DNA of 64,000 nucleotides from Eledone cirrhosa (taxonomy: Eukaryota): the NCBI GenBank assembly GCA_964016885.1, contig OZ024741.1:167338001-167402000 (forward strand), written 5' to 3'. Below are positions 4,892 to 62,582 of this stretch, piece by piece. The position numbers were made by a program, and so were the translations under genes. How positions within the stretch are numbered: position 1 is the stretch's first letter; every line of letters starts with the position of its first letter. The notes below the pieces were generated by a model. That model did not search any database. It was given only the letters and a program-made list of their open reading frames with translations, and had not been told where the DNA came from.

Positions 4892-4930
<39 letters not shown>

Positions 4931-5220
4931 CAAATAACGAAACGAAATTAAATTTCGTTTCGTTTGTAACTCACTTTTGTATGACTGACGCTTAAACAAT
5001 TAAGTTAAAAATGTACATCTACATATGCATACTGAAATACTAGTGTGTATATGAATACACACACGTATACATATGTAGGTGTACCAAGTCTTTCACTGGT
5101 CGCTTTACAGTGAGCGGCCCAGCTATTCTGTATGTAAACACACAGACAAACCGGTTTTTAGAGTCATACTGGTTTTTCGGGGGAACACCTTCCCTCTATT
5201 CTCCAGAAAGCCAGACAAGG

Positions 5221-5265
5221 AATATTGAACTAGTTTCGTTGTTGTTACAACTCATCAGCAATATT
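5221..5265 (-). ncRNA. Type I hammerhead ribozyme (family A, left arm)
   Basis: Exact reverse complement of 5663-5707. Confidence 0.85.
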
Positions 5266-5662
5266 TACCTATCTACCGGCCTTTCTGGAGAATTGTAAAA
5301 GCACATATCGTTATATGCTTTTTCTATGAAAATTAGTAGTGGGCAAACTAATTTGCATAGAGTGTGAGTACGCACCGGTTCAGCGGAGACGATAAAAACA
5401 AATAACGAAACGAATGTACATTTTTAACTTAATTGTTTTAACTTAATTGTTTTAACTTAATTGTTTAAGCGTCAGTCATACAAAAGTGAGTTACAAACGA
5501 AACGAAATTTAATTTCGTTTCGTTATTTGTTTTTATCGTCTCCGCTGAACCGGTGCGTACTCACACTCTATGCAAATTAGTCTGCCCACTACTAATTTTC
5601 ATAGAAAAAGCATATAACGATATGTGCTTTTACAATTCTCCAGAAAGGCCGGTAGATAGGTA

Positions 5663-5707
5663 AATATTGCTGATGAGTTGTAACAACAACGAAACTAGTT
5701 CAATATT
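5663..5707 (+). ncRNA. Type I hammerhead ribozyme (family A)
   Basis: AAUAUUG-CUGAUGA-GUUG(uaacaa)CAAC-GAAA-C(ua)G-UU/CAAUAUU: 7-bp stem I, canonical core, palindromic stem III ACUAGU, GUU cleavage triplet. Confidence 0.85.
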
Positions 5708-5930
5708 CCTTGTCTGGCTTTCTGGAGAATAGAGGGAAGGTGTTCCCCCGAAAAACCAGTATGACTCTAAAAACCGGTTTGTCTGTGTGTTTACATACAG
5801 AATAGCTGGGCCGCTTACTGTAAAGCGACCAGTGAAAGACTTGGTACACCTACATATGTATACGTGTGTGTATTCATATACACACTAGTATTTCAGTATG
5901 CATATGTAGATGTACTTTTTTAACTTAATT

Positions 5931-6021
<91 letters not shown>

Positions 6022-12578: not shown

Positions 12579-13464
12579 ATACATACATACATACATACAT
12601 ACATACACATAAACAAAAGCAGTAGTGATTAATACATACATACATACATACACATAAACAAAAGTGGTAATGATATATACATATATATACATACAGACAC
12701 ATAAACAAAAGCGGTAATGATACATACATACATGCATGCATACATACATTCATATATACATACACAAAAATGATACATACATACATACATACATAAACAT
12801 ACATACGTACATAAACATACATACATACATATACATACATACATGGTGGCTGCCAACTCGTTTTCGAGTACGACCACTATTTTATATCCATGTAGGAGAA
12901 CCCCTACCGATGCGCTGAACGAGTGTGACTTTTTAGTCCAGCCAGCGACTTGAAAACTCTGGTACAAACATACATACATATATACATACATACATATAAC
13001 ATACATACATACATAAACATACATTGTTTGAAAATCAGTAAAAAATATGAAATAGTCTGAATCTGTGTAATTTCAGCTTAAAATAACATTTATAATTTAT
13101 TGCACAACTTTGTATTGAGTTATTTACACAACTAGATTATTATTTTTTTTTTTTTACACAATTGCGTATCTCCTTGATGATATAAAATAAAACTAATATA
13201 TATATATATATATATATATATACTATATATATGTATATATATATATATGCATATATATATATATACTATATATATGTAGATATATATATATGCATATATA
13301 TATAGATAAATATACACGGGTGTGTATGATTGTGTATAGAAGATTATATTAATAAAAGGAATTCCTACTTTGTCTGATTTACTCGTTTTATTTACAATCC
13401 TTTAAAATTTATAATGGTATTAGAATGAAATAGTATGGTAGAATATTAAATGTTAAGTGTTAAT

Positions 13465-13503
13465 TGAACAAGTACTTTCGTGCTTTCGCAATCTTCAGAT
13501 TCA
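13465..13503 (-). ncRNA. Type I hammerhead ribozyme (family D, left arm)
   Basis: UGAAU-CUGAAGA-U-UGC(gaaa)GCA-C-GAAA-G(ua)C-UU/GUUCA. Confidence 0.75.
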
Positions 13504-13588
13504 TATTGTGTAGTGACAGTCAAGTTTGTAATTTTCAACTGCAGTTTTCACAGTTGAAAATTGCAAACTTGACTGTCACCACACAATA

Positions 13589-13627
13589 TGAACCTGAAGA
13601 TTGCGAAAGCATGAAAGTACTTGTTCA
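13589..13627 (+). ncRNA. Type I hammerhead ribozyme (family D)
   Basis: UGAAC-CUGAAGA-U-UGC(gaaa)GCA-U-GAAA-G(ua)C-UU/GUUCA; GNRA loop II, stem III palindrome AGUACU. Confidence 0.8.
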
Positions 13628-13831
13628 ATTAACACTTAACATTTAATATTCTACCATACTATTTCATTCTAATACCATTATAAATTTTAAAGGATTGTAA
13701 ATAAAACGAGTAAATCAGACAAAGTTGGAATTCCTTTTATTAATATATGCATATATATATGCATATATATGAGAAGGCGCATGGCTTAGTGGTTATATAT
13801 ATATACTATATGTATATATATGCATATATAT

Positions 13832-15464: not shown

Positions 15465-15561
<97 letters not shown>

Positions 15562-15792
15562 GAAACACACAGATACATGCGGGGACACACATATATACAT
15601 GAATGCATCCGCACCCAACTGTGAGTTAAGGGTGCCAACTTCACCGATGTTGCTCAATGAATGACTGGGACAGACCAATTCTGTTTGAACTAGACTGAAC
15701 CAGTATCAGAGTTAAAAATACATTATGAAGAGAGAAGAAACATTTAGATATAATTAGTAATAAAATGTATCATACCTAAACTGTTCCTAAAT

Positions 15793-15880
15793 TCCTCGAC
15801 TACGTAGTTTCGTGGCATAAACAAAAACAATATATCAAAGATATAGAGTCCTTGCGAGGTCTGCCGACTTATCAAGAGGA
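15793..15880 (-). ncRNA. Type I hammerhead ribozyme with U3-A8 variant core (family F, copy 1)
   Basis: Reverse complement of 17219-17306. Confidence 0.75.
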
Positions 15881-16383
15881 TACCTCATTTTACTAGTCTC
15901 AAGAACGCGTCTACACGACGTGAGAAAGAATCCCAAAAGGCGGAGGGGGAGATAGTCACGCGATATAACGGTCGAGAAACAGAGCTAAGCCTCTTATAAC
16001 CACGAAGAAAATACCACGGAGGCGGAGGGGGTACTCATATCGAGGCCGCAGAAGAGGTAGTGAAGAAGGCGAGAAGTATGAGTAATGGAAGCTTTCCAGT
16101 TGTCCCCACACTTCAAAGATTGCTCGACCAGAGGGAGTTATTAATATATTTAGAAACACACAGATACATGCGGACACACACATATATACATGAATGCATC
16201 CGCACCCAACTGTGAGTTAAGGGTGCCAACTTCACCGATGTTGCTCAATGAATGACTGGGACAGACCAATTCTGTTTGAACTAGACTGAACCAGTATCAG
16301 AGTTAAAAATACATTATGAAGAGAGAAGAAACATTTAGATATAATTAGTAATAAAATGTATCATACCTAAACTGTTCCTAAAT

Positions 16384-16471
16384 TCCTCGACTACGTAGTT
16401 TCGTGGCATAAACAAAAACAATATATCAAAGATATAGAGTCCTTGCGAGGTCTGCCGAGTTATCAAGAGGA
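16384..16471 (-). ncRNA. Type I hammerhead ribozyme, U3-A8 core (family F, copy 2; G10.1 to C)
   Basis: Same as copy 1 except a substitution at 16459 that breaks the 10.1-11.1 pair. Confidence 0.65.
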
Positions 16472-17218
16472 TACCTCATTTTACTAGTCTCAAGAACGCG
16501 TCTACACGACGTGAGAAAGAATCCCAAAAGGCGGAGGGGGAGATAGTCACGCGATATAACGGTCGAGAAACAGAGCTAAGCCTCTTATAACCACGAAGAA
16601 AATACCACGGAGGCGGAGGGGTACTCATATCGGGGCCGCAGAAGAGGTAGTGAAGAAGGCGAGAAGTATGAGTAATGGAAGCTTTCCAGTTGTCCCCACA
16701 CTTCAAAGATTGCTCGACCAGAGGGAGTTATTAATATATTTAGAAACACACAGATACATGCGGACACACACATATATACATGAATGCATCCGCACCCAAC
16801 TGTGAGTTAAGGGTGCCAACTTCACCGATGTTGCTCAATGAATGACTGGGACAGACCAATTCTGTTTGAACTAGACTGAACCAGTATCAGAGTTAAAAAT
16901 ACATTATGAAGAGAGAAGAAACATTTAGATATAATTAGTAATAAAATGTATCATACCTAAACTGTTCCTAAATTCCTCGACTACGTAGTTTCGTGGCATA
17001 AACAAAAACAATATATCAAAGATATAGAGTCCTTGCGAGGTCTGCTTCTGCGGCCTCGATATGAGTACCCCCTCCGCCTCCGTGGTATTTTCTTCGTGGT
17101 TATAAGAGGCTTAGCTCTGTTTCTCGACCGTTATATCGCGTGACTATCTCCCCCTCCGCCTTTTGGGATTCTTTCTCACGTCGTGTAGACGCGTTCTTGA
17201 GACTAGTAAAATGAGGTA

Positions 17219-17306
17219 TCCTCTTGATAAGTCGGCAGACCTCGCAAGGACTCTATATCTTTGATATATTGTTTTTGTTTATGCCACGAAACTACGTAGT
17301 CGAGGA
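17219..17306 (+). ncRNA. Type I hammerhead ribozyme with U3-A8 variant core (family F, inverted copy)
   Basis: UCCUC-UUGAUAA-GU(c)GGCA...UGCCAC-GAAA-CUA(cg)UAG-UC/GAGGA; GUC triplet, palindrome ACUACGUAGU. Confidence 0.75.
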
Positions 17307-17375
17307 ATTTAGGAACAGTTTAGGTATGATACATTTTATTACTAATTATATCTAAATGTTTCTTCTCTCTTCATA

Positions 17376-17412
<37 letters not shown>

Positions 17413-22068: not shown

Positions 22069-22524
22069 ATAAAATATTAAAAAAATAATGAATAAAACAA
22101 TGAAACAGTTCCTTATATTAAACAAAAAAAGTTCATTATTTAACGATCGTTTCTAGGATATATATGTGTTAGAATTGGCATGCATATTCAACAGATCTAT
22201 GTACAAAATTATACAAAATTATACAAACTATCAAAATTAAATATACATACCAACACATATATATGCCGTCTTCAGAAAATGTCAACCCCAACACATATAT
22301 ATGCCGTCTTCATTATTTCTGAAGACGGCATATATATGTGTTGGTATGTATATTTAATTTTGATAGTTTGTATAATTTTGTATAATTTTGTACATAGATC
22401 TGTTGAATATGCATGCCAATTCTAACACATATATATCCTAGAAACGATCGTTAAATAATGAACTTTTTTTGTTTAATATAAGGAACTGTTTCATTGTTTT
22501 ATTCATTATTTTTTTAATATTTTA
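22069..22524. repeat. Fold-back element (family G): ~208-bp inverted arms carrying a long-stem-II HHR
   Basis: 22069-22277 is the reverse complement of 22316-22524; the spacer duplicates CCAACACATATATATGCCGTCTTCA. Confidence 0.9.
22309..22462 (+). ncRNA. Type I hammerhead ribozyme with ~115-nt stem-loop II (family G)
   Basis: UUCAUUAUUU-CUGAAGA-cGGcAUAUAUAUGUGUU...AACACAUAUAUAUCCua-GAAA-CG(au)CG-UU/AAAUAAUGAA; up to 10-bp stem I, palindrome ACGAUCGU. Antisense copy at ~22132-22277. Confidence 0.7.
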
Positions 22525-22567
22525 TATATATATATATATACACATATATATATATATATATACACAC

Positions 22568-22600
<33 letters not shown>

Positions 22601-22610
22601 TATATATATA

Positions 22611-23155
22611 TATAAGTATGTACACGTGCATACATATATGTATACAGACATACAGTAGTATGTATATCTATATTCATACATGCACACATATATATATGTA
22701 CGTATGGATTCACCGAACATTTATTATAATGCTCGGTGTGTTTGTAAACAAACATCCCGTATTAAGCCGTAGTGTCTAGCAACCATCGTTGCTCGTTTGT
22801 TCAACACTGACAAAGGAACGCTGTACTAGTTTCAAGCTTATTAGCTATCATCAGCAACGTATACCTTCCTGCTAGTTTGTTGAACGTATATACTTACCTT
22901 ATGCATATTAACGGCTGAGTAGCCCAATTTGCATATCGAGTGGGTTAATAGGCCGGGTGCACCCAAAACGATAAACGGAAAAAATGAAACGAAATTTCAT
23001 TTCCCATTCTTAGTACGGTTGTTACTTAAATATAAGTATGTACACGTACATACATATATGTATACAGACGTACAGTAGTATGTATATATATATACATACA
23101 TGCACACATATATATATGTACGTATGGATTCACCGAACATTTATTATAATGCTCG
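22611..23155 (-). mobile_element. HHR-containing 420-bp unit (family H), 1.3 tandem copies after (TA)n
   Basis: TATAAGTATGTACACG at 22611 and 23031; same family as 62577-63597. Confidence 0.85.
22818..22860 (-). ncRNA. Type I hammerhead ribozyme (family H)
   Basis: ACGUUG-CUGAUGA-U-AGCU(aaua)AGCU-U-GAAA-C(ua)G-UA/CAGCGU; GUA triplet. Confidence 0.8.
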
Positions 23156-26113: not shown

Positions 26114-26445
26114 CAATCAATGGGATTCCAACTGTGACAATCCTGCCTTTATACAAGTACCTAAGACTACACCATTGAATGCACTCGTCATTATGGATTG
26201 GCAGTATCGGTAGAGGGTCAGACGCCATGCTTTGCAGCAAAGAGTTACGACCCTTTATGGTCTAAGTTCAAATCCCGCCGAGGTTAACTTTGCCTTTCAT
26301 CCTTACGGGGTCGATAAAATAAAGTACCAGTAATACACTGGGATAATTGCTGGCCTTGTGCCAAAAGTAGAAACAAAAATGTTACGTGGCGGGAGGGAAA
26401 TAGTTGGCTGCTATTTCTAGCAGGTTGTGGGAAGATAGGGGGCTA

Positions 26446-28890
26446 AGTAGCCGGTAAGAGGTTATGTAGCCAGTATGAGGGTACGTAGCCAGTAAGAGAC
26501 TATGTAGCCAGTAAAGGCTATGTAGCCGGTATGAGGCTACGTAGCGTACGAGGCTATGTCCGGTATGAGGCTATGTCCGGTATGAGGCTATGTCCAGTAT
26601 GAGGCAATGTAACCGGTATGAGGCAATGTAGCTGGTATGTGTTATGTAGCCGGTAAGAGACTATGTAGAGGGTAGAGGCTATGTAGCCGTTAAAAGGCTA
26701 TGTAGCCGGTAAGAGGCTATGCAGTCAGTAAGAAACTATGTAGCTGATAAAAGCTATGTAGCCAATATACGCTATGCAGCTGGTAAGAGGCTATGTAGCC
26801 GGTAAAAGGCTATGTAGTTGGTAAGAGGTTATGTAGCCGGTAAAAGCTATGTAGCCAATACGAGGCTATGTGGCTAGTAGAGGCTATCTAGCTTGTAAGA
26901 ATCTATGTAGTCGGTAAGAGGCTATGTAGTCGGTAAAATCTATGTAGTCGGTAAAGGCTATATAGCCAATAAAAAGCTATGTAGTCGGTAAGAGGCTATG
27001 TAGCCGGTAAAATTTATGCAGTCAGTATGAGCAATGTAGCCAATATTTAGCTGGAAAGAGGTTATGTAGCCGGTAAGCGGCTATGTAGTTGGTATGAAGC
27101 TACGTAACCAGAAAGAGACTGTGCAGCTGGTAAGAGGCTATATAGCCGTTTTACGGTGGGGAGGAGGGTGTTTTTCGTTGTTGGGACGTTTATCGTTAAA
27201 TGGGGCCCATTTTCATTGGGGAGGAGGTCCATTTTTCGTTGTGGAGGGTCTGTTTTTTGTTGGGGGTGAAAGCAGGGTGTGTTTTTCATTATGAGGTGGG
27301 CTGTGTAGCCGATAAGATATTATGTAGCAGGTATGAAGCTATGTAGCCGGATGAGGCTATGTAGTCGGTAGAAGTTATGTAGGGAATATGAGGTTATGTA
27401 GCCAGTGGAAGCTATGTAGTCAATATGAGGATTTGTAGCTGCTAAGAGGATATATAGCAGAAAAGTGGCTATGCAGGCCATAGAAGCTATGTAGGCAATA
27501 TGAAGCTATGTAGCCGGTAAAAGGCTATGTAGCCGGTAAGATGCTATGTAGCCAGTAAGATGCTATGTAATCGGTAAGAGGCTATGTAGCCGGAAAAAAG
27601 CTACGTAGACGGTAAAAGCTATGTAGTTGGTAAGTGGCTGTGGCCGGTAAGAGGCTATGTTGCCGGTAAGATGCTATATAGCCATTTTGGGTTGGGGGGT
27701 GTTCATTTTTCGTTGCAGTGGTCCTTTCTTCGTTGGGAGAGGGGGTCCGTTTTTGGTTAAGGGGTCATTTCTTTGTGGGGGGAAGTGAGGGGTGTCCGTT
27801 TTTCGCTGAAGGAGGAGGGTCCGTTTTTCGTTGAGGGGAGGGGTTGTTTTTCTTTGAGGGATGGGTATCCGTTTATCATCGGGTGGCGGGGGGCGGGGGC
27901 GTTTTCGTTAGGGATGGGGTTCGTTTTTCTTTGTGATTTGTGGTCTTTTGTTGGGGTGCATTTTTTGTTGGTGGGTCCGTTTTTCGATTGGCAGGGGGAC
28001 CATTTTTCGTTGGAGTGTCAGTATTTTTTGTTTTTGTTTTTTTAGTGTTGGGTTGAGGGGTGGAGTGTTTTCGTTTTTCGTACGGGGGGAGTCCAGTTTT
28101 CATTGAAGGTCGTGGGTCCATTTTTCGTTCGGCATGGGTCAGCGTTTTACGTTGGAGGGTTGGTTTTTCGTTGGAAGTTGATTCGTTTTTCGTTGGATGG
28201 GAGGGGGGTCCCTTTTTCGTTGTGAGGTCTGTTTTTCGAAGTGGAGTGTCTGTTTTTCGTTATGTGTGGGGGCTGTGTAGCCAGTATGAAGTTATGTAGC
28301 CGGTAAGTGGCTATGTAGCCGGTAAAAGATATGTCGCTGTTTTTCGATGGGGGGGGGGGGTCCGTTTTTCATTGGTGGAGCCCGTTTTTATGTGGGGGTG
28401 CGTTTTCTGTTGAAGAGGGAGGGCCGTTTTTTGTTGGGGTTTGGGGTCCGTTTTTCGTTGGGGGTCAGCATTTTGTTTGTTTGGGGGATGGGGGTTGAGG
28501 GGTGGAGTGTTTTCGTTTGTCGTAGGGGGGAGTCCATTTTACGCTGAAAGTGGGGGTTCCGTTTTTCGATGGGAGGGGGGGGGGGTCGTTGGGGGGTCCG
28601 TTTTTCGTTCGGGGGTTCCGATTTTCGTTATGAGTGGGGGCTGTGTAGCCGGTATGAGGTCATGTAGCCGGTAAGAAGCTATGTAGCCTGTAAGAGGCTA
28701 TGTAGCTGTTTTTCGTTGGGGGGTATCCGTTCTTTGTTGGGGTAATCCGTTTTCCGCTGGGAGTGCGTTTTTCATTGTGGGGTCCATTTTTCGTTCAGGG
28801 GTCCGTTTTCCGTTGAAGAGGGGGAGGGGGCGCTTTTTGTTGGAGTTTGGGGTCCGTTTTTTGTTGAAGGGTGGGTATCTGTTTTTCGAT
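26446..28890. repeat. Composite minisatellite: ~20-bp GGCTATGTAGCCGGTAAGA blocks alternating with GGGGGTCCGTTTTTCGTT blocks
   Basis: Type 1 at 26446-27148, 27299-27683, 28271-28337, 28640-28706; type 2 in between and up to 28890. Confidence 0.9.
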
Positions 28891-29481: not shown

Positions 29482-31860
29482 CAGTGGCGGATTGGGTCTA
29501 AAAATATTGGTTGCCAGATGAAGGGGGCCCACCTACATATAGTTTGCTATCATTTAATTTTTATAACAAATAAATAACATTTTCGAAAAATACATAAGTG
29601 GAAACAAAACAGCGCAATCAAGTTTTTGCAGAAAAAAATCTTACCTTCTCCAATAAAAAATATGTATTTTGCGAAATCCAGAGATTTTCAATAATGACCA
29701 GAGATCGACCCTAAATATTACTAATAGCTCTAGGAAAGCCATGAACGACAGCATATCTTTTTAACTTTGATTTTGAAAGTAGGTTTATAATTATCAATTT
29801 TCATTATACTTGTGTAGCTGTCTCGATGGCCTAGTTAGAGGAATCATAGACGGCGATGATCCTGGTCTGAAGTTTGATCCTAGTTGGGAGTAGGGTTCCC
29901 AGTAAACCTTTTCATTTTTTTTCTGTTGGTTATAAAATAAAAACTGAAAAGGTTACATGCACCTCTTGACCAGGATTGAAGCAAATTCCTTATTTTACTG
30001 CAGGAATAACAGAAAAACAACTACTATCACAATCAACAAAAACAATGCAAATTCCTTGCTACAAACGAAATAGTTAGAAATGGTAAATGATTTAATGAGA
30101 CACTTGTTTCTGCTTATTGTGCGATAACTTCTCCACATCAGGTGAAATATTTGTCGATGACAGGAGCAAAACATCATCCAGTTGTCGTCACGCAACCTTG
30201 TTCTTAAATGACTTTTAATATATTTCATTTTGGAAAAAAGTTGTTCACAAGCATATGTACTTCCAAATAATGATATCATCAGTTTCGCATTAGTCAAGAT
30301 GTTTTTATATTTTCCGCTTGGCAATATATATTTCTGGTAGAAATCAGCAGTGGATTCGAACTGAAATTTCGATTTCAAAGATTCGTCGCACTGTAAGTCC
30401 AACTGATATTCTTCTGCCACTTGCTCCACATCTGTTTCGTAAGGAGTACCAAATAACTTAAATAGAGTTCCATATTGCCGGAAGTCAGCAAAACGAGAGG
30501 AAAACTCGCCTCTCAAATCCTTAATAGAGCTCACAAAGATGTCTGGTATTATATCTCTCTTGTGATTTTGGAGACTTGGAAAATGAGAGTAGTTTCCTTT
30601 TTGAAGTTGTGATTCCCACAGTCGAAGTTTTCTCTCAAAAGCAGTAATTTGACCAAACATCTCAAATACAACCTTGTTCTTTCCTTGAAGCTCAAGATTC
30701 AAAGTGTTCATGTGAGTCGTGATGTCCACTAAAAAAGCTAACTTGACAACCCACTGTGGATCCTGAAAGTAAGAATTATCTTGGTCTTTGCTCTCTAAAA
30801 TCATAGAAATCTCTTCTCTCAATGCATATACTCGTTCTATCATTTTTCCGCGGCTAAGCCATCGAACATTTAAAAAATGGGTAAGGTCCCCATACTCTGC
30901 TTCAATTTGTTTTAGAAATTCTTGAAACTGGCGGTGATTTAGTCTTCTTGACAGTATAAAATTCACTGTTTTCACGACCACTGCCATGATGTCCTTAAAA
31001 TTCAGTGACTTTGCACATAATGCTTCTTGATGAATAATGCAATGAAGTTTGATTAGCTTTTGATCAATACCGATGTGGTTTTGGAGCAATGCAACAAACC
31101 CCTTTTTCTCTCCAACCATTGCTGGTGCTCCATCTGTGACTACTCCAGAAAGCTTTGATAAATTCAGATTCATTTCGGTAATCCATTTTATCATGCTCTC
31201 CAAAATATCTGCTCCAGTGCTAGTGTCCTTCATAGGAATCAATTGTATAAATTCTTCCACAATATCAAATGTTGGTGTTACACCGTCACAAACACTGCAA
31301 GTTGACAAGTATCCTTCATATCTGTGGTTTCATCGATAGCAATGGAATAATACTCCAGATTATTTAAAATGCCCTCCAAGCCACTTCTGACATTTGCTGC
31401 CAGCTCTTCAATTCGCCTTGTTACTGTTCTTGCCGATAAGCAAGAATAATTCCCTTTTTTCTGGACAAACAACATCTGCTACCTTCAACAATAATTCTTT
31501 GAAGAAATCTCCATCAGTAAAAGGTTTCATCCTTTCTGCAATTAGTTTTGACACCTCGTAGCTAGCACGAGTGTTTCGGTCACTTTCTTCAACTTTTGTA
31601 GTGAAAAAGAATGATTGTTACATTATTTCTCAGCCATGCAACTTCGTTTACTCGTGCTTTTCCAGTAAAACTGTTGTAATGATTATGACGAGTTTCATAG
31701 TGCCGTTTAATATTTGAAACTTTCTTCGCGGCAATGGTTTCTTGACAAATTAAGCAAACACATTTTCCGAAGTGCTCAATGAAAAATTAGCTAAGTGTCC
31801 AGCCACCGTTAAAAGTTCGGCACTCCAAATCCACTTTTCTTTTTGTTCAAACAAAAAAGA
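29482..31860 (-). mobile_element. hAT (Charlie/SPIN, GTF2IRD2-like) transposon with frameshifted transposase
   Basis: CLIC...NIKRHYETRH finger, YSIAIDETTD, TDGAPAM, HCIIHQEALC, VRWLSRG, FGSTYACEQLFS. Frameshifts near 31620, 31290 and 30180. hAT-like terminus CAGTGGCGGA at 29482. Confidence 0.88.
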
Positions 31861-32102
31861 TTTATGGAAAGGAAAAAGAACAAAAAGTATAATAATCAGA
31901 ATGAAGAAATAAGAAACAATGAAAACAAATGTAAATGCAAATAGAGTAATGCGATAAAATATGATAATTGTGAATAAATTATATAAAACCAGGTTTCTAA
32001 CGACGTTGTTAGATTAGGGTTGCCATTTGTTTTTTTAAACCACTTTCGACCTAATTCTAATAATAATAATTCACACTATTTAAGAACTAATCGTGGAAAA
32101 CC

Positions 32103-33735
32103 TGCATGCCTGGAAGAGGCACCACTGATGCCCTCTTCCTTGTGAGGCAATTACAGGAAAAGTACCTAGCTAAAAGTAAGCCACTCTACTTGGCATTTGT
32201 CGACCTTCAGAAAGCCTTTGACAGAGTTCCACGTGCTGTAATCTGGTGGGCTCTTAGAAAACTAGGAGTAGATGAATGGCTTGTGAAAGCGGTACAAGCC
32301 ATGTATAGGGGAGCAGTCAGAAAAGTTAGGATTAGCAATGAGTATAGCGAGGAATTTAGCGTACAGGTTGGGGTCCACCAGGGCTCTGTTCTTAGCCCTC
32401 TCCTGTTCATCATAGTCCTGCAGGCAATAACGGAGGAGTTTAAGACCAGATGCCCATGGGAACTCCTGTATACTGATGACCTCGCACTCATAGCTGAATC
32501 TATGGTAGAACTAGAGAATAAATTCCAAACCTGGAAGCAGGGACTAGAGAGAAAGGGTCTCAAAGTCAACATGACCAAGACTAAGGTCCTTGTAAGTAGA
32601 CGAGAAAACAGAACCCAGATCCCCTCGGGGAAATGGCCTTGTTCAGTATGTAGGAAAGGTGTAGGTAGGAACTCCATTCTCTGCCCCAAATGCAAACAAT
32701 GGGTACACAAGAGATGTAGCGGGATCTCAGGAAGCTTAATTAAGAATGTAGGATTCACATGCAGCAGCTGTGCCGAAACAGCAAGCAGCAAACAGCCACA
32801 GGAAACAAGTACCACTAATCTCTGGGAGGGCCCTGTAGAAACAGTAGACAGCTTCTGCTACCTAGGTGACCGAATTGGCAGCGGAGGTGGGTGTTCAGAA
32901 AGTACAATAACTAGGGTAAGAACGGGATGGAAGAAGTTTAGGGAACTACTACCACTGCTAGCTGCAAAAGGCTTCTCCCTCAGAATGAAAGGCACACTGT
33001 ATGATGCGTGTATCCGAACAGCGATGTTGCATGGTAGTGAGACCTGGGCGCTGAAGGTGGAAGACTTGCGTAGATTAGAGAGAAACAAAGCCTGCATGCT
33101 CCGATGGATGTGTAACAGTAATATACATGAACGACAAAGCATAAATGAATTGAGAGAGAGACTGAGCATAAGAGGAATCAAATGCTGTGTGCAGGAGAGG
33201 CGGTTGCGCTGGTATGGACATGTGATGCGTATGAAGGATGACAGCTGCATAAAAAGGTGCAGAGCACTAGAAGTTGATGGTAACCGCGGAGTGGGGAGAC
33301 CCAAGATGACCTGGGATGAGGTGATAAAAGCCGACCTTACCCAACTACACCTCTCAAAGACAATGACACACGACCGTGACTTCTGGCGTCACGCAGTAAT
33401 ACAGAGTACTCGACCTCCCATGGGTACATGCTGAAGCATATAAACAATATGCCCCCACACCCCCCACTGCAGGGTGGTCGTGGAGGTGCCACGGCAAAAA
33501 AGCACCCAGCCCACACTGTAAAGTGGACGTGTAGGCGCCATGAAAAAGCACCCAGCACTCACTGTAAATGAGGTTGGTGTTAGGAAGGGCATCCAGCTGT
33601 AGAAATCAAGCCAGATCAGTTCCTGTATGAGCAAGGCATGGTCAGCCGACCAGACACTGCACACAACAGGACAACCCGTCTAACCCATGCTAGCGTGGAA
33701 GAACGGACGTAAAACGGTGATGATGATGATGATGA
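32103..33735 (+). mobile_element. 5'-truncated RTE-clade LINE; open 442-codon RT to C-terminal frame (32106-33434), 3' UTR, (GAT)n tail
   Basis: FVDLQKAFDRV, GVHQGSVLSPLLF, LYTDDL, YLG, RRLRWYGHV, GRPKMTW; internal CSVC...CPKC..WVHKRC...CSSC finger. Confidence 0.93.
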
Positions 33736-38744: not shown

Positions 38745-39835
38745 TCAGTTGCCAGATGTCGGAGCTTCAATGTATCCATCCCCAGGGAAGCAAGGCGTTC
38801 AGAGTATGGTAGATGCCTGATGGAGGGTATTCACTTGGTTGTATGTCTCTGAACTGTTTCCAGGCGGTCAATGTTCTGAGCAAGATAGGGGTTCCAGACT
38901 GGTGATGCAAATTCTAAGTGTGGTCGCATCACAGCCATGTACACCCTTAAATAGATAGCTGGAGAGCGGCTGACAAAGGTCTTGCTGAGTGATGCTAAGA
39001 CACCCTCGACCTTCTTCACAATTTTAGAGACGTGCTTCATCCAACGCAAATCGCTGCTGACAGTAATGCCCAGGTCACGTTCACAAGAAAACTTCTTGAT
39101 ATTAGTGTTGTGGAGGGAGTATGTGGACGTTGGGTTTTTACCCCCAAAATGCATGGTGGTACACTTGTCCACAGCCAGCTTGAGTTGCCAGTCTGTGATC
39201 CATTGTTGCATTGTGTCCAGGTCAGATTGCAGGCAAGATCTATAGTGTTCAGGATCTGTCCTTTTTATCTCAAGGTACAGTTTCATGTCATCTGCATATT
39301 TCAGTACTGTGGCATTCTTTAAGTTGGCATCTATGTCATTAATATATGCCACAAACAAAAGGGAGCCAAGAACAGATCCCTGTGGTACACCAGATGGCAT
39401 CTCATACAGTGAGGAATGCTGTCCTAGAACCGTGACTACCTCTCTTTGACTGAGAATGAAGGACTTCAACCAGTTAAAAAGATCACCTATTGCAGAAAGT
39501 TTTGCCATAAGTTTTTTGTGTGGAACAGAATTGAAAGCTTTAGCAAAGTCAAGGTAAACAATATCCACCCATGAGCCGCCATCAGTGATCCGGGTGATGT
39601 CTTCAAGAAACTTGATAAGTTGATCACAGCAGCTGGAGTTAGGGATAAATCCAAATTGCGAGGGCCGGATAAGACTGTGAGAGTTCCAGAAGTTCCAAAG
39701 TGTTTCTCTGACACAGGATTCCATCAGTTTGGCAATGCAGCTAGTAAGACTGACTGGACGATAGTTGACAGGTGATGTGCGGTCACCCTTTTTGAACAGA
39801 GGAATGACACTGGCAGTTTTCCATTGTTCACAAAA
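38745..39835 (-). mobile_element. CR1-like LINE reverse transcriptase fragment
   Basis: WKTASVIPLFKKG...NYRPVSLTS, YLDFAKAFNSVPH, SGVPQGSVLG, YADD, ERDLG, RPHLEFASPVWNP (ORF 38831-39724). Confidence 0.9.
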
Positions 39836-41323
39836 TTGGAAGAAGAGTGATAGCTGGTGCAGAAGGAAGTACCCACCACGTTTGAGAAGCAGGTACGTAA
39901 CACCATTAAGACCAAACTAACAGGCCTGCTCTGACATAGAACAGTATCACATGCAAGGATTGCAGAGTAAACTACATTACTAAATAACACTGATCGCAGA
40001 ATAGAGTCCTGGACTAAACAGCAGTGATCCAGTAATATAAGATGAAAATTTGCATATAACTTACAAATAGATAGTATAATGACTACTAGGCAGTCAAGCC
40101 CAAAACCAATGGCTACTTAATTGTAGGACTGGGAAGGAAACCTCCTATGACCAACTGCTAATACATTGTGGGACTGGGGAAAATGCCTCATTAGTCTAGA
40201 AAGAGGACCTTCTAGTAGAAATGTCAAAATTGTTAGCGTGCCTGGTAACTGACAGGTCAAGCCTAGTCATATATTGTGTCATGCTGGTTTAGTTTGGGAA
40301 TTACTTGAAGAGTACACATTGCTTGTAGAATACTTAACTACTTGCACATTAATTCATTATTCTTTTATTCATTTACAGGTTTCAATCATTAGGATGTGGC
40401 CATGATGGAGCACTGCCTTGAAACGATTTACTCATTAACATTGACCCCAGTATTTCTGGTACTTATTTTATTGATCCCTTTTTTATTGAACATTATGTTA
40501 GATAATCAAAAACAGAGACACAAATATAAAAAGATATACAGACACATATGTATTTACTCCTATATACATATATGCATATTTATGTGAGCATGGAAAATAG
40601 ATGTAAAATAGTGATGATGATGATGATGAAGAGTAAGAAAATTCATGATCAGCTTCTGCAGTTTCTGTCAACCTAGGTCCACTCACAAAACATTAATTGG
40701 CTTTAGACTATAGTAAAACATACTTGCCCAAGATGCTGTGCAGTGGGACTGAACTCAGAACCATGTAGTTGTGAAGTAAACTTCTTAACCATATAACCAT
40801 GCCTACACCTATGTTGACTGGACATTTAGTTGATCAGACAACTGAATATTCATCATTGAAACTGACGGAGGATCCATCATCATTATATTAGCAGAGAGTT
40901 ATGGTGTTAGTGGTGGTGGTGGTGATGTGGTGATAATGATGATGATGGTAATGATAGTATTTGTAGTGGTGGTGGTGGTGGTGATGTGCTGATAATATGA
41001 AATAGCTACAGTTATTGTTTTTTTATATGAGAGGATGGGTAAACAAAAGTTTGTTAATCAATAAACATTTACAACATATTGATTAAACACTAATAGAGAA
41101 ACAAATGAACAAGGAAAGAATTTGAATGAATATTTATAAATATTGACAACTTAATCCTGCTTAAACCTTATATTTGCATCTTCAAGTAATTGTACCCTTT
41201 GTTATCTCACTAATTCACAGGTGCTGCACATTTCATAAATCACTGTTAACTACAATTGAAATTAAATATTTAAATAAGATATACATAAAGCCCTGTATAA
41301 TCCCTCTGTCAAGAATATTATTC

Positions 41324-46900: not shown

Positions 46901-49900
46901 TACTTATACAACTATATATATATATGTGTGTGTGTGCATGTTGTGAGTGTGTGTGTGTGTGTAAAACATAGGATTGTCATGGATTGTCATGGATTGTCTT
47001 TGATCATTGGAATGTCAGTCATTTCAGGGTTGATCTAAATCTAAACAACAACCTTTGAGTAACTATCCTCTCAGAGTTGCTTCTTTTGATTGGATTTTGT
47101 TATTCTTTTTTAACTGTCATCATCATTCTCAGCAGTGCTAGCTTCGTCTTCTTTATAATCATTATCAACATGATTTGAAATTTTCATTTTATTAGAAGAG
47201 TCATTTCAGCCATTTAAAAACACAAAAACTGTTAAATTCACTTTACATTTATCATTTATTGCTTGGAGTCAACATTTTCGTCACACTATTTGCGATCTCG
47301 TCACTGATAGTTTCCACAGACCAATGAAAATTTTGATACCAAAATATAAATGATAAATATAGAGGCATGTTAGCCATTTGGTCATTTTGGGCAATGTCCA
47401 ATGGTCTGCTGGACTGTATTAAAGAAAAAATAGCTAATAAAGTGTCATGAAAAACTTCATAAAGTTAGAAACAAAAATTGAAAATACCTTAGCTAAGCAA
47501 TGAAAACACACCCCTAGCCCTCAACAATCTATTAGTCAGTGTCAACTTGATTGAACAGTGAAAACACACCTCTGGCTGTCATCAGTCAGCAGTCTTTTAT
47601 TTGTTTTTACAGAGATGAGAAGGGAAAACACACTTCTGGCTCTCAGCAGTCAGCTGTCTGTTAGTCAGTATCACTTGTTTGAAGATCCTGTTTGCTTCTG
47701 ATTAAATGTAAAGTGAAGTTAATGATTTTTGTGGGCTTTTCAATGGCTAAAATGACTCTTCCATGCTGTTATTTTTTTAGTTTCAACAGTCACAGATCAA
47801 GTTATTTGCCAGACAAATACAACTGTAGCTAAAATGACTCTTCCACATTGTAAATGCCTTACTCAGATTTAGTTACCTGCCAAACAGTTTCAATGCACAG
47901 TGTCAAATCAAGTGTTTGCCAGAAAAGTACAATTCTGCCATTTTATTCTTGTGTTTTTATTTATTATTCCAGCTAATGATGAATTTGTTAAGATACTCGG
48001 AGTATCAATTAGAGGCCATGACCTCATGAGAATACGTAACATTGATGTGGAAGACTGTCTTCATAAATGCAAGAATTTGCCAGAATGTTCCATGGTAGAA
48101 TACAAAAAAGAACAGGCCAAATGTGATTTATCCAATGTCACTTACTCTACATACCCACTCAGTGTGAATGCCTTTGGATGGGACTTCTACCAGAAAAACC
48201 CAGGTATGTTGTTAAAAGTATACTTAATTTTATTATTCCAAAGCAAGGTATTAACCTGCCTGAAACCACTCTGAGTTTGATACAGAACTGCCCATTTTAA
48301 AGTGTTCATACTTGTTTAAAACTTTCCATCGTAATTGTATTAAGAATGTTTTGTTCAGCAATGTTCAAAACCATAGCTTAATAATAATTGTTTCTACCTT
48401 TGGCACAAGGCCAGCAATTATCCCAGTGTATTACTGGTACTTTATTTTATTGACCCTGTAAGGATGAAAGGCAAAGTTAACCTCGACAGGATTTGAACTC
48501 AGACTGTAAAGGGACGTAACTATGCTGGAAAGCATGGTGTCCGACCCTCTACCGATACTGCCAACCCATTAATAATAATGATTTCTGATTTAGGCACAAG
48601 GCCAACAGTTTTGGGAAAGAGCAAAGTCGATCGAATAGATTGCAGTGCATTACTGGTGCTTTATTTTATCAATCCCATAATAATTTTGGGGGAGGGGAAG
48701 ATAATGATTTCTACTATAGGCAAAAGGGGAGGAGAAAGTTGATTAAATCAACTCCAGTGCATTGCTGGTGGTTTATTTTATCAACCCCGTCAAGATGAAA
48801 GGCAAAGTTAACCGTGGTGGGATTTGACCCAGAACGTAAAGGGCCATAACTCTATGCTATAAAGTATGGTGTCTGTTGCTTTACCGATACTTCCAATTCA
48901 CTGCCAATTACTAGCTTACTATTAATAAAGTTAGTTATTTTATTAAATCCCTTCAAATTTTTGATTATTTTCAAAATTAATAGAAACACATGAGTAGTGT
49001 CTTTCATTAGAAATATGGTAACAAAAGGGTTAAAATGTATGTTGTCGTATTCAAATGGATTTTCTTATGAACTTTTTCCAGTTTATTGCAACTTGAAATG
49101 TGGACCTAGGGAATGGTGCCAGGTTAAGAACTCCCAGCAAAAGTGTGTTTGTTATCCAGGGTGTGTGAAACTACCCTCAGGAAATGGATGTTATGGTAAG
49201 ATATGAGCTTGTTCATGATGTTGCTGCTGTCAGCTTTTTAGTTCTATTTTCGTTTTTTATATTGCAACACTTGATCACATACACAAAGCACACACATATA
49301 TGACTGCACATACACACACACACACACAGGCACACAACATACAAACATCCCGTAAACACACACAAATACATGTAAACACAAACACAGGCACCCACACATA
49401 CAGTGGATACATATACACAAACACACATATACAAACATACACACACACACACACATACAGATACTCGTGCATATATATAAAATTCGTTTGTGGCTTGATG
49501 GTTAGGAAGTTTACTTCACAATCCTGAGCTTCAGGGTTGAGTTCTGTCCCACTGCATGTCATCTTGGGCAGGTGCCTTTTACCATAGCATTGGGGAGACC
49601 TAAGTATTTTCAGTGAAATTGGATAGACAGACATTGTATGTAAGCTGCTCTATATCTGTAAAATAAATTAGGAACCTTGTTACATCATTTCACACATATT
49701 CCACATGAGAATTACATTAACCCTTTAGCATTTAAACTGGCCATATCCGGCCAGAATTCTCTCACCTCTCTCTGTTCAAACTGGCCATAACTGGCCGAAG
49801 TTATTGTTCTCAAAATAAATAACATCAAAATCTCATAGATTCGATAATTACGTGAGTGAAGCCTTTACCACAAAAATACAATAGTATATATATAGAATAA

Positions 49901-52900
49901 TGTAAATGCTAAAGGGTTAAAGGTTCATTTATCTGTGGAATATTCAATCACTTTACACAATTGTAGAGTGTTCAGTTAGTCAAACAACTGGAAGCTCATA
50001 TGTCCTCTACAATGAAGTCATCATCATCATTATAATCATTTTATGTTATATAAAATGAGCTTCTGCAGTTTACATCTCCCAAATGTTATTCACATGACAT
50101 TTGTCAACCCATGGCTAATGTAGAAAACCCATGCTTAAAGTGCTGCACCACGAGACTGAACCAGGACTATGTGATTGTAATGTGTAATCTTTAACCACAC
50201 AGAAGTACCTGCACCTAAAATATGTATTCTAAAGAGCAAAATTGGGATTGCCTGATATCTGTTTGTGACCTGAGAGTGAAAGTATGACTGAAAAGATTTT
50301 TAAAATATAACCTTAACTATGAATATATAAATAAATTGTGAAGTCTGACTTGCTTGTTTGAAATGTCAACTGATGATACAGAGGTCACCTAGTTTAATAA
50401 AACAGAAAAGAGGGGAAAAAATGGAGAAAATGTACTTTACTATATATGCCTCCTTATCATCTGTCCAATGTGACAGGAGTAATTTTTTCATGTTTTTTTC
50501 TCACTGTCATACCTGAAATTTAAACTCTACTGGCCTTGGCCTCCTTATGACAGATGAGCTTTTAACTGCCTTGAACTTTATATTATTCATGTTGTACTGA
50601 TATTTATAATGTAATAGATGAGTGGAATATAGCTCAGGGAGAGGAAGACAGACAATGATTTGCAGAAGAACATAGGAATAGAGCCAGTGATAAATGTTGT
50701 AAGAAGAAATGTAATGAAATTGTTGGGTCATGTGTTGCAAAAGATGAAAAAGTAACTCAGTGTTGGGGATAGAACCAGTGATGAATGTTGTGGAGAAAAA
50801 TGAAATGATATGGTTGGGTCAGGTGTTGAGAAACGATGACAATAACTGGGTGAGAGGGCTGATTGACATAGAGCCAGTGATAAATATTGCATATTTATAT
50901 ACAAACACACAGTGTATCATTATGGCACTGCATTTCCTATATCAATTATGTTGTAACATTAATAAGTTCACTTTCCAATCACAAGCTCCTGGGTTCTAAC
51001 CCTATATTTTTGCCTGTAAATACATTTAATCCTGTGTGTCATTTGTATGTACATGGCGAACATTTATGTAATTATATCCTAGAAACAAATTATTAAAACA
51101 TAATTTTCAACTTTAATCACTTCCACATATCAGTAATTAACATAAGCTATAGGGTTTCAATTATGCAAACCTTGATTTTATCAAAATGCAAATTTCCCAG
51201 TTTGTATGTTTGTTCATATATCTAGTAGTCTTGGTATATATGGTACACCAATCCTAGATGCCAAAAATTAAATAGATTCAATGCTATTGTCATCATTATT
51301 GACAGTACTGGTTCACTACTACTAATATAACAATCAACATTTTTTGTTACAGAGAAACCAATATATAAAGGCAAAACATGTAAATGTTCAGCATCTGGGG
51401 ATCCTCATTACCGGACTTTTGATGGCCAGTTGATCCACTTCATGGGAACTTGTAAATACACTTTGGCACAATCTCTGCATTCTGAAGGTGTTGAATTCTT
51501 CAAAGTTGAAGTGAAGAATGAAAACAGGGGTAACTCAAAAGTCTCCTATACCCGAATGGTTGACATTATTCTGGAGGGCGCTGTCATCCGTATTTTGCCA
51601 GGACGTAAAATAAGAGTGAGTTGATTTAAACATTCTTTCAGTCATGTTTGACTTTATTGTTAAGTGTTATTTGTTTCTAAGTCATGTGACTTAGGGGTTA
51701 TGGTATTTGGCTCATGATCATAACATCATAACTTTGATTCCCAATGGTGCATTGTGTCCTTCAGCAAGACACTTTATTTTATATTGCTCTAGTATACTCA
51801 GCTTAGAACTATGTTAACAACAGTACACATGTCTGGAGATTACTTGGTATTGTGCACATTAATTACATGAGCAGGCTGTTCCATTTTTTTAACAACTCGA
51901 GCACTTATCAGAACTGATGGAGGTCCAATGATATGTTTTTGTTTGTAAATGGCTGCTGGGTTTGTGAAACCAGCAGAGCTCTAGATCATCATCATCATCA
52001 CTTTTATGTCCATTTTTTCCATGCTTGCATGAGTTAGATGGGTCCTTCTCAGCACAGCATCTCTCCACACACTGCATTACTTCATCATCTCCTCTGTCAG
52101 TTTCAATGATTTGAGGTCAGCTCTCACTACCTCTGCCCAAATAATAAATAAATAAATAAAATCAATACTTTACTATATTTAGTTACAACCCCAAAATATT
52201 CTGAGTTCTGATTTTGCTCTTCATATATTAGTGAAGGTGAATGGTTTAGTGGGTAGGATGTTGGGCCCATGATTTAACCCTTTAGCATTTAAACCGGCCA
52301 TATCCAGCCAGAATTCTCTCACCTCTTTCTGTTCAAACCAGCCGTAACTGGCCACTCATACTGATGTTAAGGTATTGTTCTCAAAATAAATAATATCAAA
52401 ATCTCATAGATTTGATATTATGTGAGATATTATGTGACATAAAACCTTTACCACAAAAATACAATAGTATATATAGAGTAATGTAAATGTTAAAGTGTTA
52501 AGCATGTGAGTTCAATTCTTAGATTAGGCAATGTGTTGAGTCCTTGAGCAAGAGACTTTATTTCATGTTGCTCCAATTCACTCAGTTGGAAAAAAGGAGT
52601 TGTGATATCACTGTTCCAAGCTGTATCAGCCTTTGCCTTTCCCTTGCACAACATCCATGGCATGGACAGAGGAACTTTCCAGGTGCAAACTCATGGTCAG
52701 TCATAACTGAAGAGAATCATTCAATGGTCTATAAAATAAACACCAGTCATATACTGGGACTGTTTCAGTTGGTTACAGTCTCTTTGTGGCCATCTAGTTA
52801 AAAAGTTAAAAACACCTGAGAAACCTCCTGTGAGATGAAGCCTTGTAGGAAGTCAGGTAAACTAACATAAGTGTGGGCTGTAACAACATGATATATAGAG

Positions 52901-55900
52901 AGAAAGAGATGTTAGGTAGAGAGGGCTCTATAGTTGAGTCAATGACCGACAACCTTTCATGTGCTGGTGCCATGATAAATGCACCTTTTACACTGTAATG
53001 TGGTTGACAATAGAAAGGGTATTCTGTTGTAGATACCATGCCAAAACAGGTCTATAGCACAACTTCTCTAGTATTGGTAGTCTACATGAGAATCACCTTC
53101 AGTACACTCTGTAATATGGATGATGATAGGAAAGGCATCCAACTATAAAAAACGTGCGCAATAAAGGGTTGTGAGAACTCTTCAGCTTTGTCAACGACAT
53201 GACAACCTCTTTAGTGCTAGTGCCATGATAAAATGCACACAGTAGTATACAGGAATGTATGTAAATGAGATGCCACCCATGATCCATCTGAGCACTGAGT
53301 AGAGAATGGGAATATATGTGAGATTCAGGCCTCGTGGTCCATCTGAGAAGTCAGTAGCTCTGCTTAGTCTTTGAAGATCTGTCCAACTCTTGCTAGCAGG
53401 GAAACCAGATTTTAAATGATTATGATGCGGATATACTTGATAGGACTGAAACCCTTATTATTAAAACACCTGAAAAATCTCCTATGGAATGTAACTTTGT
53501 AGGAGTCTACATACGTGTGAGCTGTATCTCTTCTTTTTTCATTTCTATATAAATAAATTATTACTTGAACTATTGATCTCTTTTGTTTACTGATTATAAA
53601 TGGTTTTCAATTTCTTCAGGTCAATAAACTCGAGCTAGAGGCACCAGTCATAAACAAGGCTTACACCATCAAACTTTCCAATGGCTGGATACATGTAGAG
53701 ACCAGCTTCAATCTGCATGTCTCGTTCGATGGAAAGCACAGAGTAAGAGTTAGTGTACCCCGAAATACATTTGGAGGACGGCTAACAGGAATATGTGGTG
53801 ACTGCAATGGACATAGAGATGATATGAGAACCAGCAATGGCACTATTGTGGTAAAGGAGAAGAACAAGTTTTCCCTCATTGGAGAGAGCTATCGTGTGAA
53901 AGATGACTCAGATAGACCTCAGGCCAGGTAAATTGTAGGCTGTTAGTTAAGAGGTCAGCTAAAAGTTTCTATGCACACACATACACACAAACATTCATAT
54001 ATACACACATATACAAGCATATACACTTACATACATATACATACACATACATATACATGCACATACACACATACATACATATATATACATATATACACAC
54101 ACATAAATACATATATCTATATATACATACATATGTTGATACCACAATAAAATGCATCCAGTACATTTTATAAGTATTATTAGTGCTAGTTCCATAATAA
54201 AAGGAACCCCAGTATAATCTGTAAAGAATCAGAGGCAGTTTCAGAGATTTCAGTAGCAAAAGTGTTAAACTAGTGTTTGGATCATAACATAATAAAGGTT
54301 TTTACATAAAAGTATGGTGGAAAGTTTATAGATAATTATAAATACTTTAAAATATACAACTTTATACCATAGATCCAAGGATAGTTTCAGGCAGTTTGGT
54401 ATCAATAGTATAAAGTTGATGTTTGGAACATGACTTTAAAAAGTTTTTTACATAAAAATTTGATGGCAGTTTTTAAATATGAACAACCTTGTATCATAGA
54501 ACCTTGAGCAGATTCAGACAATTTAGTATCAAAAGAGATAACATTACATATCTAATAGAGCATGCTTGATTCAATAACTATTGATATATACCTATTGACA
54601 TTATTCAGATGTGAAGAAATCGAACCTCATGATCTATGTAAAGAAAATGGACTATCAAACTGTGAGATTATCCGAAATCCAAAAGGAATGTTTGGCAAAT
54701 GTATTGAAAAGCTAGGAGCAATGGATGTCGAGGAATTCTTTGAATCTTGTGTGTTTGATTATTGTTACTATGCCAACTCCACAGAAATAAAGGGAATCGT
54801 ATGTGCAGCTTTGGAAAGTTTTGCTGCTGAATGTGAAACTGTTGGTATTGTTTATAACTGGAGATTTATGACCAATTGTCGTAAGTTGCAACTAGGAATT
54901 CCATATTATTTTATCTTATTCATTTATTTTATCAACATAATATCATATTGACATATATGTTTATATGTATGTATGTGTTTTAACAGTTTGACTTATTTAA
55001 CCAAACAGTTTCATAGACATGTTGAACTCCTCAGATGTTTTTGAATAATTATCTGAAGTAGTTAGACATGTTTAAGTCGACAAAATTGCTTCATAGTATA
55101 TAAAATCTCAAACTGTTAATATATTCTCAACTTCAACATTATATGTTGAATGCACTTCCTTTTCATTTGTACCCCCATATATCATCATCATCATCATAAT
55201 TACCGTTTTACGTTCATTCTTCCACGCTAGCATGGGTTAGACAGGTTGTCAGCATGGGTTACACAGATGTGATTTATACATTTGCATATATACACATATA
55301 TATAAATATAAAAAATATATATTTCTTGTAGCCATGAAATGTGGTCCCAACATGGATTACGAGCCTAAGACTAGTGGCTGTCAACCAACCTGTGTGAACA
55401 GAAACTCAGTTGACAACTGCTCAAGAAAGGATATCGAAGGATGCGTATGTCAGAGAGGTTTTGTACTCAGTGGAGAAGATTGCATTACACCTCGAGATTG
55501 TGGTTGTGTTCATGATGGACGTTACATTAAGGCAGGCATACCTCCTCCATTTCTCTATATCTCTCACTCACATGCTCTATCTTTGTCTTTCTTTTCCACA
55601 TTGCTTTCTCTTTGTCTGCGCACTCCCTCTGTCTCTCTGTCTCTCACTCACTCTACCTATGTATCTTTCTCTTTCACTCTCGTTTGTCTTTTCCACTTTG
55701 CTCTCCTGTCCTCCTTTTACACACTCACTCTATCTATCTATCTCCTCACTCTCTCTGTTTATCTATCTGTTTATCTTTACATGAATAAATAAATTGGTGC
55801 TCCCCTTTCATTTACTTGATGTGTTTTCTTCGTCCTCATATTGTCCCTAACATTGTCAGCCCATGTAGCCAGTATAACATTCATTATTGTTGTTGTAATC

Positions 55901-62576: not shown

Positions 62577-62582
<6 letters not shown>

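Follow-up and report, generated by a model that had tools for sequence, protein, structure and literature searches.

Does a hammerhead repeat unit bring its own promoter, so that each tandem would be a cassette that transcribes and cleaves itself? The question is raised by the stretch at 5521-5729, where two repeat families, A and H, were proposed to share an octamer placed ahead of the ribozyme. The window analysed here, 64,000 nucleotides of Eledone cirrhosa DNA, holds both families. Our reading, to which we give a probability of roughly 0.65, is that A and H are type I hammerhead retrozymes, probably copied by a Penelope-type enzyme, each likely with a compact promoter of the snRNA type that more likely recruits Pol II than Pol III.

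The initial annotation described a module of short words, and two A arms and three H copies indeed show these words where it had placed them. TTTATCGT starts at 5532 on the plus strand and at 5396, 22975, 63001 and 63423 on the minus strand. The octamer ATGCAAAT starts at 5570 and its reverse complement at 5351, 22927, 62953 and 63375, and GAAACTAGT occurs in 5/5 window copies of the two families. The extension of stem I differs by family as had been claimed, with TTCTCCAGAAAG/CTTTCTGGAGAA at 5636/5718 in A and GTTCAACA/TGTTGAAC at 22885/22806 in H. TTCCTT(T)GTC, said to follow stem III in both families, was found in four of the five copies, the one at 62859 reading TTCCTTTCTC. The distance from octamer to ribozyme, put at about 65-90 nt, had to be corrected: measured from octamer start to hammerhead core it is 100 nt in A, 80 nt in young H and 88 nt in older H copies. 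A tandem layout was confirmed for H at 62577-63520 but not for A, which in the window forms a head-to-head inverted pair. The features used below are the following.

5450-5935, plus strand: family A arm of a single unit that has no tail and stops in (TA)n
4924-5423, minus strand: inverted family A arm, ending with its tail (hairpin and TTTAT) in (TA)n
5468-5536, plus strand: tail of the A unit, 69 nt, with hairpin at 5498-5522 and TTTAT at 5532-5536; A insertions end here
5567-5580, plus strand: TCTATGCAAATTAG around the octamer, with the same letters as the U6 promoter of the host in L062
5570-5577, plus strand: octamer ATGCAAAT, also predicted to form the 5' arm of an RNA hairpin at 5567-5605
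5586-5590, plus strand: CCACT at octamer +16, putatively equivalent to the YCAGT element of host Pol II genes
5611-5618, plus strand: TATA-like word CATATAAC, with TATAA at octamer +43
5642, plus strand: predicted transcription start (C|A) at octamer +72, placed by host U1/U2/U5 spacing
5636-5729, plus strand: type I hammerhead of family A with extended stem I; core CTGATGA 5670-5676, stem II 5677-5690, GAAA 5691-5694, palindromic stem III ACTAGT, predicted cut after 5700
22603-23155, minus strand: family H insertion of 1.3 units, with octamer 22927-22934, intact core 22848-22854, predicted start 22862 and predicted cut after 22824
62577-63520, minus strand: family H direct tandem of 2.2 units ending at the tail, with octamers at 62953-62960 and 63375-63382

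The last of these is the only direct tandem in the window, and the first core base is changed in both of its copies (TTGACGA and GTGACGA). None of the window's own copies forms an intact tandem of two ribozymes. Since both cores of the only direct tandem are altered, the window copies are probably dead ends.

The families were followed through the whole assembly (3.0 Gb in 1796 contigs). A pattern for the module gave 8175 matches against 3 for the reversed control, the first 100 all being of H type, and a pattern for the hammerhead gave 11,404 against 24, with 95 A-type and 5 H-type copies among the first 100. A third pattern returned 3722 matches against 0, mostly of a family C. A pattern that demanded the octamer and excluded the usual stem II of A and H returned 645 against 4 and revealed four further groups, named C, F2, F3 and F4; two of its matches (L224, L244) appear fortuitous and were left out of the families. 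The unit measures 468 bp in A and 420-431 bp in H. Subfamilies of A range from 466 to 470 bp, with direct arrays of up to 31 units, and H has at least several thousand copies. Short direct tandems with spacings of 466-470 and 420-431 bp are thus dispersed at high copy number. Judged from the 99% identity among its best matches (166 matches, from 40 of 782 candidates scored), family A is young. No reading frame of at least 110 aa was found in the A arm 5450-5935 or in the H copies.

A and H could be aligned across the entire module, and the tails of C, F2 and F3 are similar, which indicates that the shared module reflects common descent. As all the repeat families share descent, they are not independent of one another in the comparisons below. 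Three observations concern the further families. In family C, three octamer blocks stand head to tail ahead of the TATA word (L200 1370-1510, L210, L246). F4 is an old solitary family with octamer, TATA-like word and hammerhead (L204, L218, L220, L239-L242); several of its copies have a T run 180-220 nt past the octamer, with no tandem neighbour nearby. One F2 copy recurs every ~58 kb at G000:C1:143343540-143791156, which places it within a large tandem duplication.

The ribozyme of A and H fits the descriptor of a type I hammerhead with an extended stem I, in every unit apart from the altered core of the two window H copies. It is the canonical form with a long stem I, not the minimal Penelope-type form. 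The claimed ACUAGU of stem III, a palindrome of 6 nt, was found in both families; short palindromic stems III have been described as requiring a dimer (PMC4209133, in the portion available). The stem region of A was clearly more stable than its shuffles (z = -5.58), whereas the H stretch was not clearly above them (z = -1.04). The long stem had been called covarying, which proved right to a modest extent, with two-sided changes at 3/35 pairs in five A rows and at 5/29 in seven H/F2 rows. Rfam at gathering score returned no match in the window.

The hairpin with TTTAT, described as part of the shared module, turned out to belong not to a promoter but to the tail at which retrotransposed copies end. 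Ends of A were counted on 22 distinct insertions among 30 loci, overlapping loci being merged and loci having been chosen for containing a full unit. The 3' end was visible in 21 insertions, and all 21 end at unit position 66-69, at the TTTAT behind the hairpin, followed by TA-rich flank. Inversions were found in 16/22 insertions; in 14 of these 16, one arm carries the tail and the other ends at 463-468, a second end site about 70 nt before the tail end. H behaves likewise, with two end sites about 52-60 nt apart and one arm at each of them in 14 of 24 inverted pairs. In both families the 5' ends are scattered and the target is (TA)n. A and H thus combine 5' truncation, 5' inversion, a one-sided tail and a microsatellite target. 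Penelope-like elements are described in the accessible part of 10.1101/2021.04.23.441226 as partial tandems with an inverted 5'-truncated copy, a tail at one end only and microsatellite targets, TA targets being described there for the Naiad clade. Mobilisation of animal retrozymes by a Penelope-type enzyme has been proposed, as far as the texts at hand go, in PMC7229834 and 10.64898/2026.07.22.740005. That A and H are non-LTR retrozymes of the Penelope type is, on these grounds, very probably correct.

A rival idea is that the units are fragments of pseudo-LTRs of autonomous Penelope-like elements, unable to propagate by themselves, with a promoter that belongs to the parent. Xenopus retrozymes do match Penelope pseudo-LTRs, according to the available part of 10.64898/2026.07.22.740005, and the fetched flanks of our loci contained fragments of Penelope-like reading frames, one with a Pfam GIY-YIG match over the cut-off. 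In these flanks, the fragments apart, no autonomous partner of A or H was found. Against the fragment idea, the A and H segments of the 60 mapped loci stop in (TA)n, at an inversion or at junctions that are scattered, none of them joined to a common coding body, and direct arrays of entire units exist. We consider it highly improbable as an account of the present copies, although an origin of A and H from pseudo-LTRs is compatible with our preferred reading.

Other repeats of the window may be recorded here. A repeat of ~590 bp at 15548-17386 consists of 2.5 direct copies and an inverted piece between (TA)n runs, a layout of the Penelope type; a canonical hammerhead core was looked for in it and none was found. 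Minimal Penelope-type hammerheads form an inverted pair at 13335-13757, with cores at 13498 (minus) and 13594 (plus), and another lies at 7941 (plus), with no octamer 75-105 nt upstream. A perfect inverted repeat of 210 nt (22069-22525) between (TA)n adjoins the H insertion. At 26441-28875 lies a minisatellite of 19-bp units, one strand of which has G-rich blocks. Among three frames at 32091-33434 (plus), 38831-39916 (minus) and 29995-31329 (minus), two are LINE-type reverse transcriptases (Pfam RVT_1), and a frame of 444 aa in the same set has no Pfam match and looks like a DNA transposase. Exon-sized frames at 47873-57439 (plus) with PAN, VWD, C8, TIL and VWA domains point to a gene resembling mucin or zonadhesin.

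The case for a promoter depends on the host's own small RNA genes. We fetched 20 of 48 matches for U6, 8 of 15 for U6atac, the single one for RNase MRP, 15 of 48 for U2, 12 of 42 for U1 and 20 of 43 for U5; Rfam at gathering score over 20 of these snRNA loci gave no additional snRNA. An octamer-like word at -76 to -78 together with a TATA word at -30 was found at the U6 genes L061 and L062, in six upstreams of the C19 array of U6 genes, at the best U6atac gene and at the single RNase MRP gene. The background chance of such a word is 0.0024 per site. In two further copies of the C19 array the octamer is displaced by an insertion. It is missing from two solitary U6 copies and from 7/8 U6atac loci, all of which may be retrocopies. 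Genes of the Pol II type look different: in all 13 chosen U1/U2/U5 upstreams YCAGT lies at -55 to -58, a TATA-like word follows near -30, and a proximal octamer is absent.

Two further words of the host genes were noted. A distal word of the kind TTA[CT][CT]TCCCTT, with 0-1 mismatch to TTACCTCCCTT, lies ~257-288 nt upstream of U1, U2 and U6 genes (L061, L062, L063, L081, L083, L135, L136, L139), is weaker at MRP and absent at the U5 genes checked; TTACCTCCCTT is a candidate distal element of host snRNA promoters. It is absent from A and H, where the best match has 3-4 mismatches. A word resembling a 3' box, AAAA(T/A/G)CAGA, occurs just after U1, U2 and U5 (L135-L145, L081-L083, L247-L253), and a similar one was seen near the end of the family C body, the other repeat families being without it.

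Viewed against these genes, the claim that each unit has its own promoter stands in part. The same word that precedes TATA in host U6, U6atac and MRP genes is found in the repeats: A equals U6 L062 over 14 bases, and H matches the host Pol III word TATG[CG][AT]AAT[TG]AG at 11 or 12 of 12 positions. Six families keep the octamer and its spacing to TATA, a TATA-like word lying at octamer +41 to +45 in 26/29 representatives (one at +40/+42, two unscored). What did not stand is the role given to CCGG and CACTC, which are common only to A and H and were rejected as parts of a general module. A word resembling YCAGY begins at octamer +16, reading TCAGC in H and F2, TCAGT in C, TCACC in F3, CCAGC in F4 and CCACT in A. 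About 26 nt before the TATA-like word, YCAGT is exact in C and has one change in H, F2, F4 and A. Octamer and TATA lie 42-43 apart in A, H, F2, C and F3, a spacing outside the 46-48 of the host Pol III genes. Because TATA at +42/43 corresponds to the U1-type distance, the predicted start was placed at about +72/73, where the letters are C|AG in A, older H, F2, C and F3_L234 and T|A in young H.

Scoring with profiles gave a divided picture. A Pol II profile, built from the 13 U1/U2/U5 upstreams and scored at 140 offsets in 29 representatives, was best at +16 in 14 of them (F2 6/6, C 3/4, F4 4/7, F3 1/5); A and H scored -17 to -29 and none of their seven representatives peaked there. The 12 bases past the octamer fitted the Pol III profile in A and in older H, with scores of 4.1 and 6.5 where the background has its 99th percentile at 2.9, and in most F2 as well. 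The repeats probably have a hybrid layout, judging by the words and their distances, with a U6-type octamer set on a U1-type spacing of PSE and TATA.

Whether the octamer is kept for transcription can be asked of its conservation. Family C had been collected without the octamer, and 16/30 of its copies reach the position, 13 with the exact word and 3 with one change; for F2, F3 and F4 the octamer was in the search pattern, so that its presence there is circular. The block TATGCAAAT was found in 8/8 representatives, partly by selection. The minor-letter share of the octamer is 0.000 in A (unit mean 0.040), 0.032 in H (0.065) and 0.019 in C (0.075), and 36/395 (A) and 119/395 (H) eight-base windows are as conserved. 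Around ~20 incidental hammerhead-like matches outside the families, mostly minimal Penelope-type ones, no octamer was found at 75-105 nt. The preferential conservation expected of a promoter word therefore holds between families, while within A and H the partner arm of its hairpin is equally invariant (A 0.000 vs 0.000; H 0.032 vs 0.018 in the partner).

This leads to a different account, in which the octamer would be kept for RNA structure or protein binding in a circular RNA, or simply by recent descent, and transcription would begin at host genes or Penelope promoters and read into the repeats. The octamer, 7/8 paired in A and H, and the TATA-like word both lie in predicted hairpins of a highly paired unit, and the alignment of A and H through the module would suit descent as well. 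However, such an account leaves unexplained why the octamer letters match the host U6/MRP promoter word and why the distance from octamer to TATA is constant within a few bases. Pairing partners, mismatch positions and pairing register change between families while the octamer letters stay, and in family C the partner strand varies more than the octamer (0.137 vs 0.019). We regard this account as improbable and a real promoter in the A/H units as probable, on the strength of shared words and distances.

If the promoter is real, Pol II is moderately favoured over Pol III. The competing possibility is a type 3 Pol III promoter like that of U6, most transcripts from which would end once they meet a T run near the tail, rare read-through giving the unit-length RNA. 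The proximal octamer was seen in the host only at Pol III genes (the five chosen, against 0/13 for Pol II), although these five promoters were picked after looking, and the bases past the octamer fit the Pol III profile as said. Schistosome hammerhead repeats also appear to use Pol III, as far as the sources at hand tell. From the predicted start to the tail, the six families together have 2 runs of T4 or longer against 6.2 expected (P = 0.04, post hoc, with hand-set borders). Yet A runs are also low in the same test (6 vs 8.9) and F3 has a T6 in mid-body, well before the insertion end; T-run avoidance is a weak sign of Pol III. The octamer-to-TATA distance speaks against Pol III too, as do the T runs in tail and promoter, which would block nearly all unit-length A RNA. 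Four T runs (T5, T5, T4 and T4) stand between an A transcript and the next ribozyme. Human Pol III termination rates are given as 75% and 95% in the available part of PMC6023835, and at these human rates ~0.02% of Pol III transcripts would pass. The same text states that Pol II, too, is recruited by type 3 promoters, most of all by the compact H1. We consider the Pol III reading unlikely.

Traces of transcripts in the copies were also sought. No pile-up of 5' ends at the predicted start was seen in H or C; H had a mild rise in 5' ends just past the cut site, to which no statistics are attached. Scars of RNA editing were considered and dropped, A>G changes being rare and without clear excess (36 A>G vs 61 T>C in A; 130 vs 114 in H). 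Four contig sets gave cover in 30/30 bins, a cover that shows neither starts nor strand.

Under the preferred reading of a Pol II promoter inside a Penelope-copied retrozyme, binding of the octamer by a POU factor and of the +16 element by SNAPc would start an RNA ~72 nt past the octamer, inside stem I. In a tandem, this RNA would run through the tail, promoter and ribozyme of the next unit. By analogy with published work on the class, two cuts would free a unit-length, circularisable RNA with the promoter inside it; given its palindromic stem III of 6 nt, the ribozyme probably cuts as a dimer. A Penelope-type enzyme would then prime at (TA)n, using the UUUAU that follows the tail hairpin, and would copy anything from a single unit to many, frequently with a 5' inversion. 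In this last step, ends, target and inversions were read from the copies themselves, and the enzyme is what we infer. As the unit-length RNA includes the promoter and is copied in tandem, the promoter would be inherited through the tandem layout.

A wider proposal is that the whole superfamily of hammerhead repeats in this genome uses this hybrid promoter, which is absent from the host genes examined, recruits Pol II, reads through T runs and copies itself. We put it forward tentatively, and it is rather doubtful. In Drosophila, snRNA promoters of the Pol II class and those of the Pol III class differ in spacing by 4 bases. The PSEA sequence helps to set polymerase specificity and the spacing is conserved, by the part of PMC1761439 at hand. 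[quoted passage not shown]

Since both the class and an snRNA-type promoter in a hammerhead repeat were already known, the gain is moderate. The locus offers a concrete promoter candidate with a predicted start base and a set of natural variants, and the retrotransposition tail is now set apart from that candidate. The host words of U6 type and U1 type are outlined as well and are useful for small-RNA expression. A literature search by titles and the beginnings of abstracts, with most subscription papers and all supplements outside its scope, found no such retrozyme promoter and no mollusc U6 promoter with octamer and PSE; the available parts of PMC6466107 and PMC10886601 hold nothing on a promoter.

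Among known systems, the closest are the metazoan non-LTR retrozymes of Cervera and de la Pena 2020 (PMC7229834) and Li, Clavereau and Pollet 2026 (10.64898/2026.07.22.740005), compared here from the accessible portions of both. Like them, A and H are low-GC, non-coding tandems that exist in thousands of copies; each unit has a single type I hammerhead whose stem III is a short palindrome, and a Penelope-type mobilisation is proposed. Their units of 420-470 bp are longer than the 350-390 bp of mussel retrozymes. For the published retrozymes, circular RNA and cleavage have been demonstrated, and for A and H they are predicted; A and H in turn have a fixed tail end, an inversion pattern and a candidate promoter, none of which those portions describe. 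Animal retrozymes are reported as abundant RNAs in all tissues analysed, and the same portions are silent on what transcribes them.

With Penelope-like elements and their pseudo-LTRs, A and H share partial tandems, an inverted 5'-truncated copy, a tail at one end, microsatellite targets and type I hammerheads (10.1101/2021.04.23.441226 and PMC4209133, both as far as available). They differ by having no ORF and by a tail of about 52-69 nt where 30-40 are reported there. The human H1 (RPPH1) promoter likewise has a distal element beside the PSE plus a TATA box and is used by both Pol III and Pol II, according to the consulted parts of PMC6023835 and PMC9652321. It is the promoter of a host gene and not a mobile repeat, so the likeness is architectural only. 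In Schistosoma SM-alpha (Ferbeyre 1998, through what PMC6765202 and PMC2220036 relate of it), the promoter of one unit transcribes the next and tandems are needed, much as proposed here. It is SINE-like and transcribed by Pol III in that account, unlike our reading of A and H. Its promoter is said to be of the internal A/B-box kind.

The nearest precedent is newt satellite 2, a hammerhead tandem with an internal snRNA-type promoter reportedly used by Pol II (Coats, Zhang and Epstein 1994, as cited in the available parts of PMC2220036 and PMC6765202). The newt belongs to a different phylum, and the likeness is one of description. The satellite promoter reportedly has an octamer and a PSE; set against it, the octamer of A and H abuts a PSE-like word that is followed by a TATA-like box. 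If the proposal for the hammerhead superfamily holds, then, together with newt satellite 2, capture of the snRNA machinery would be the general route by which animal retrozymes are expressed in all tissues.
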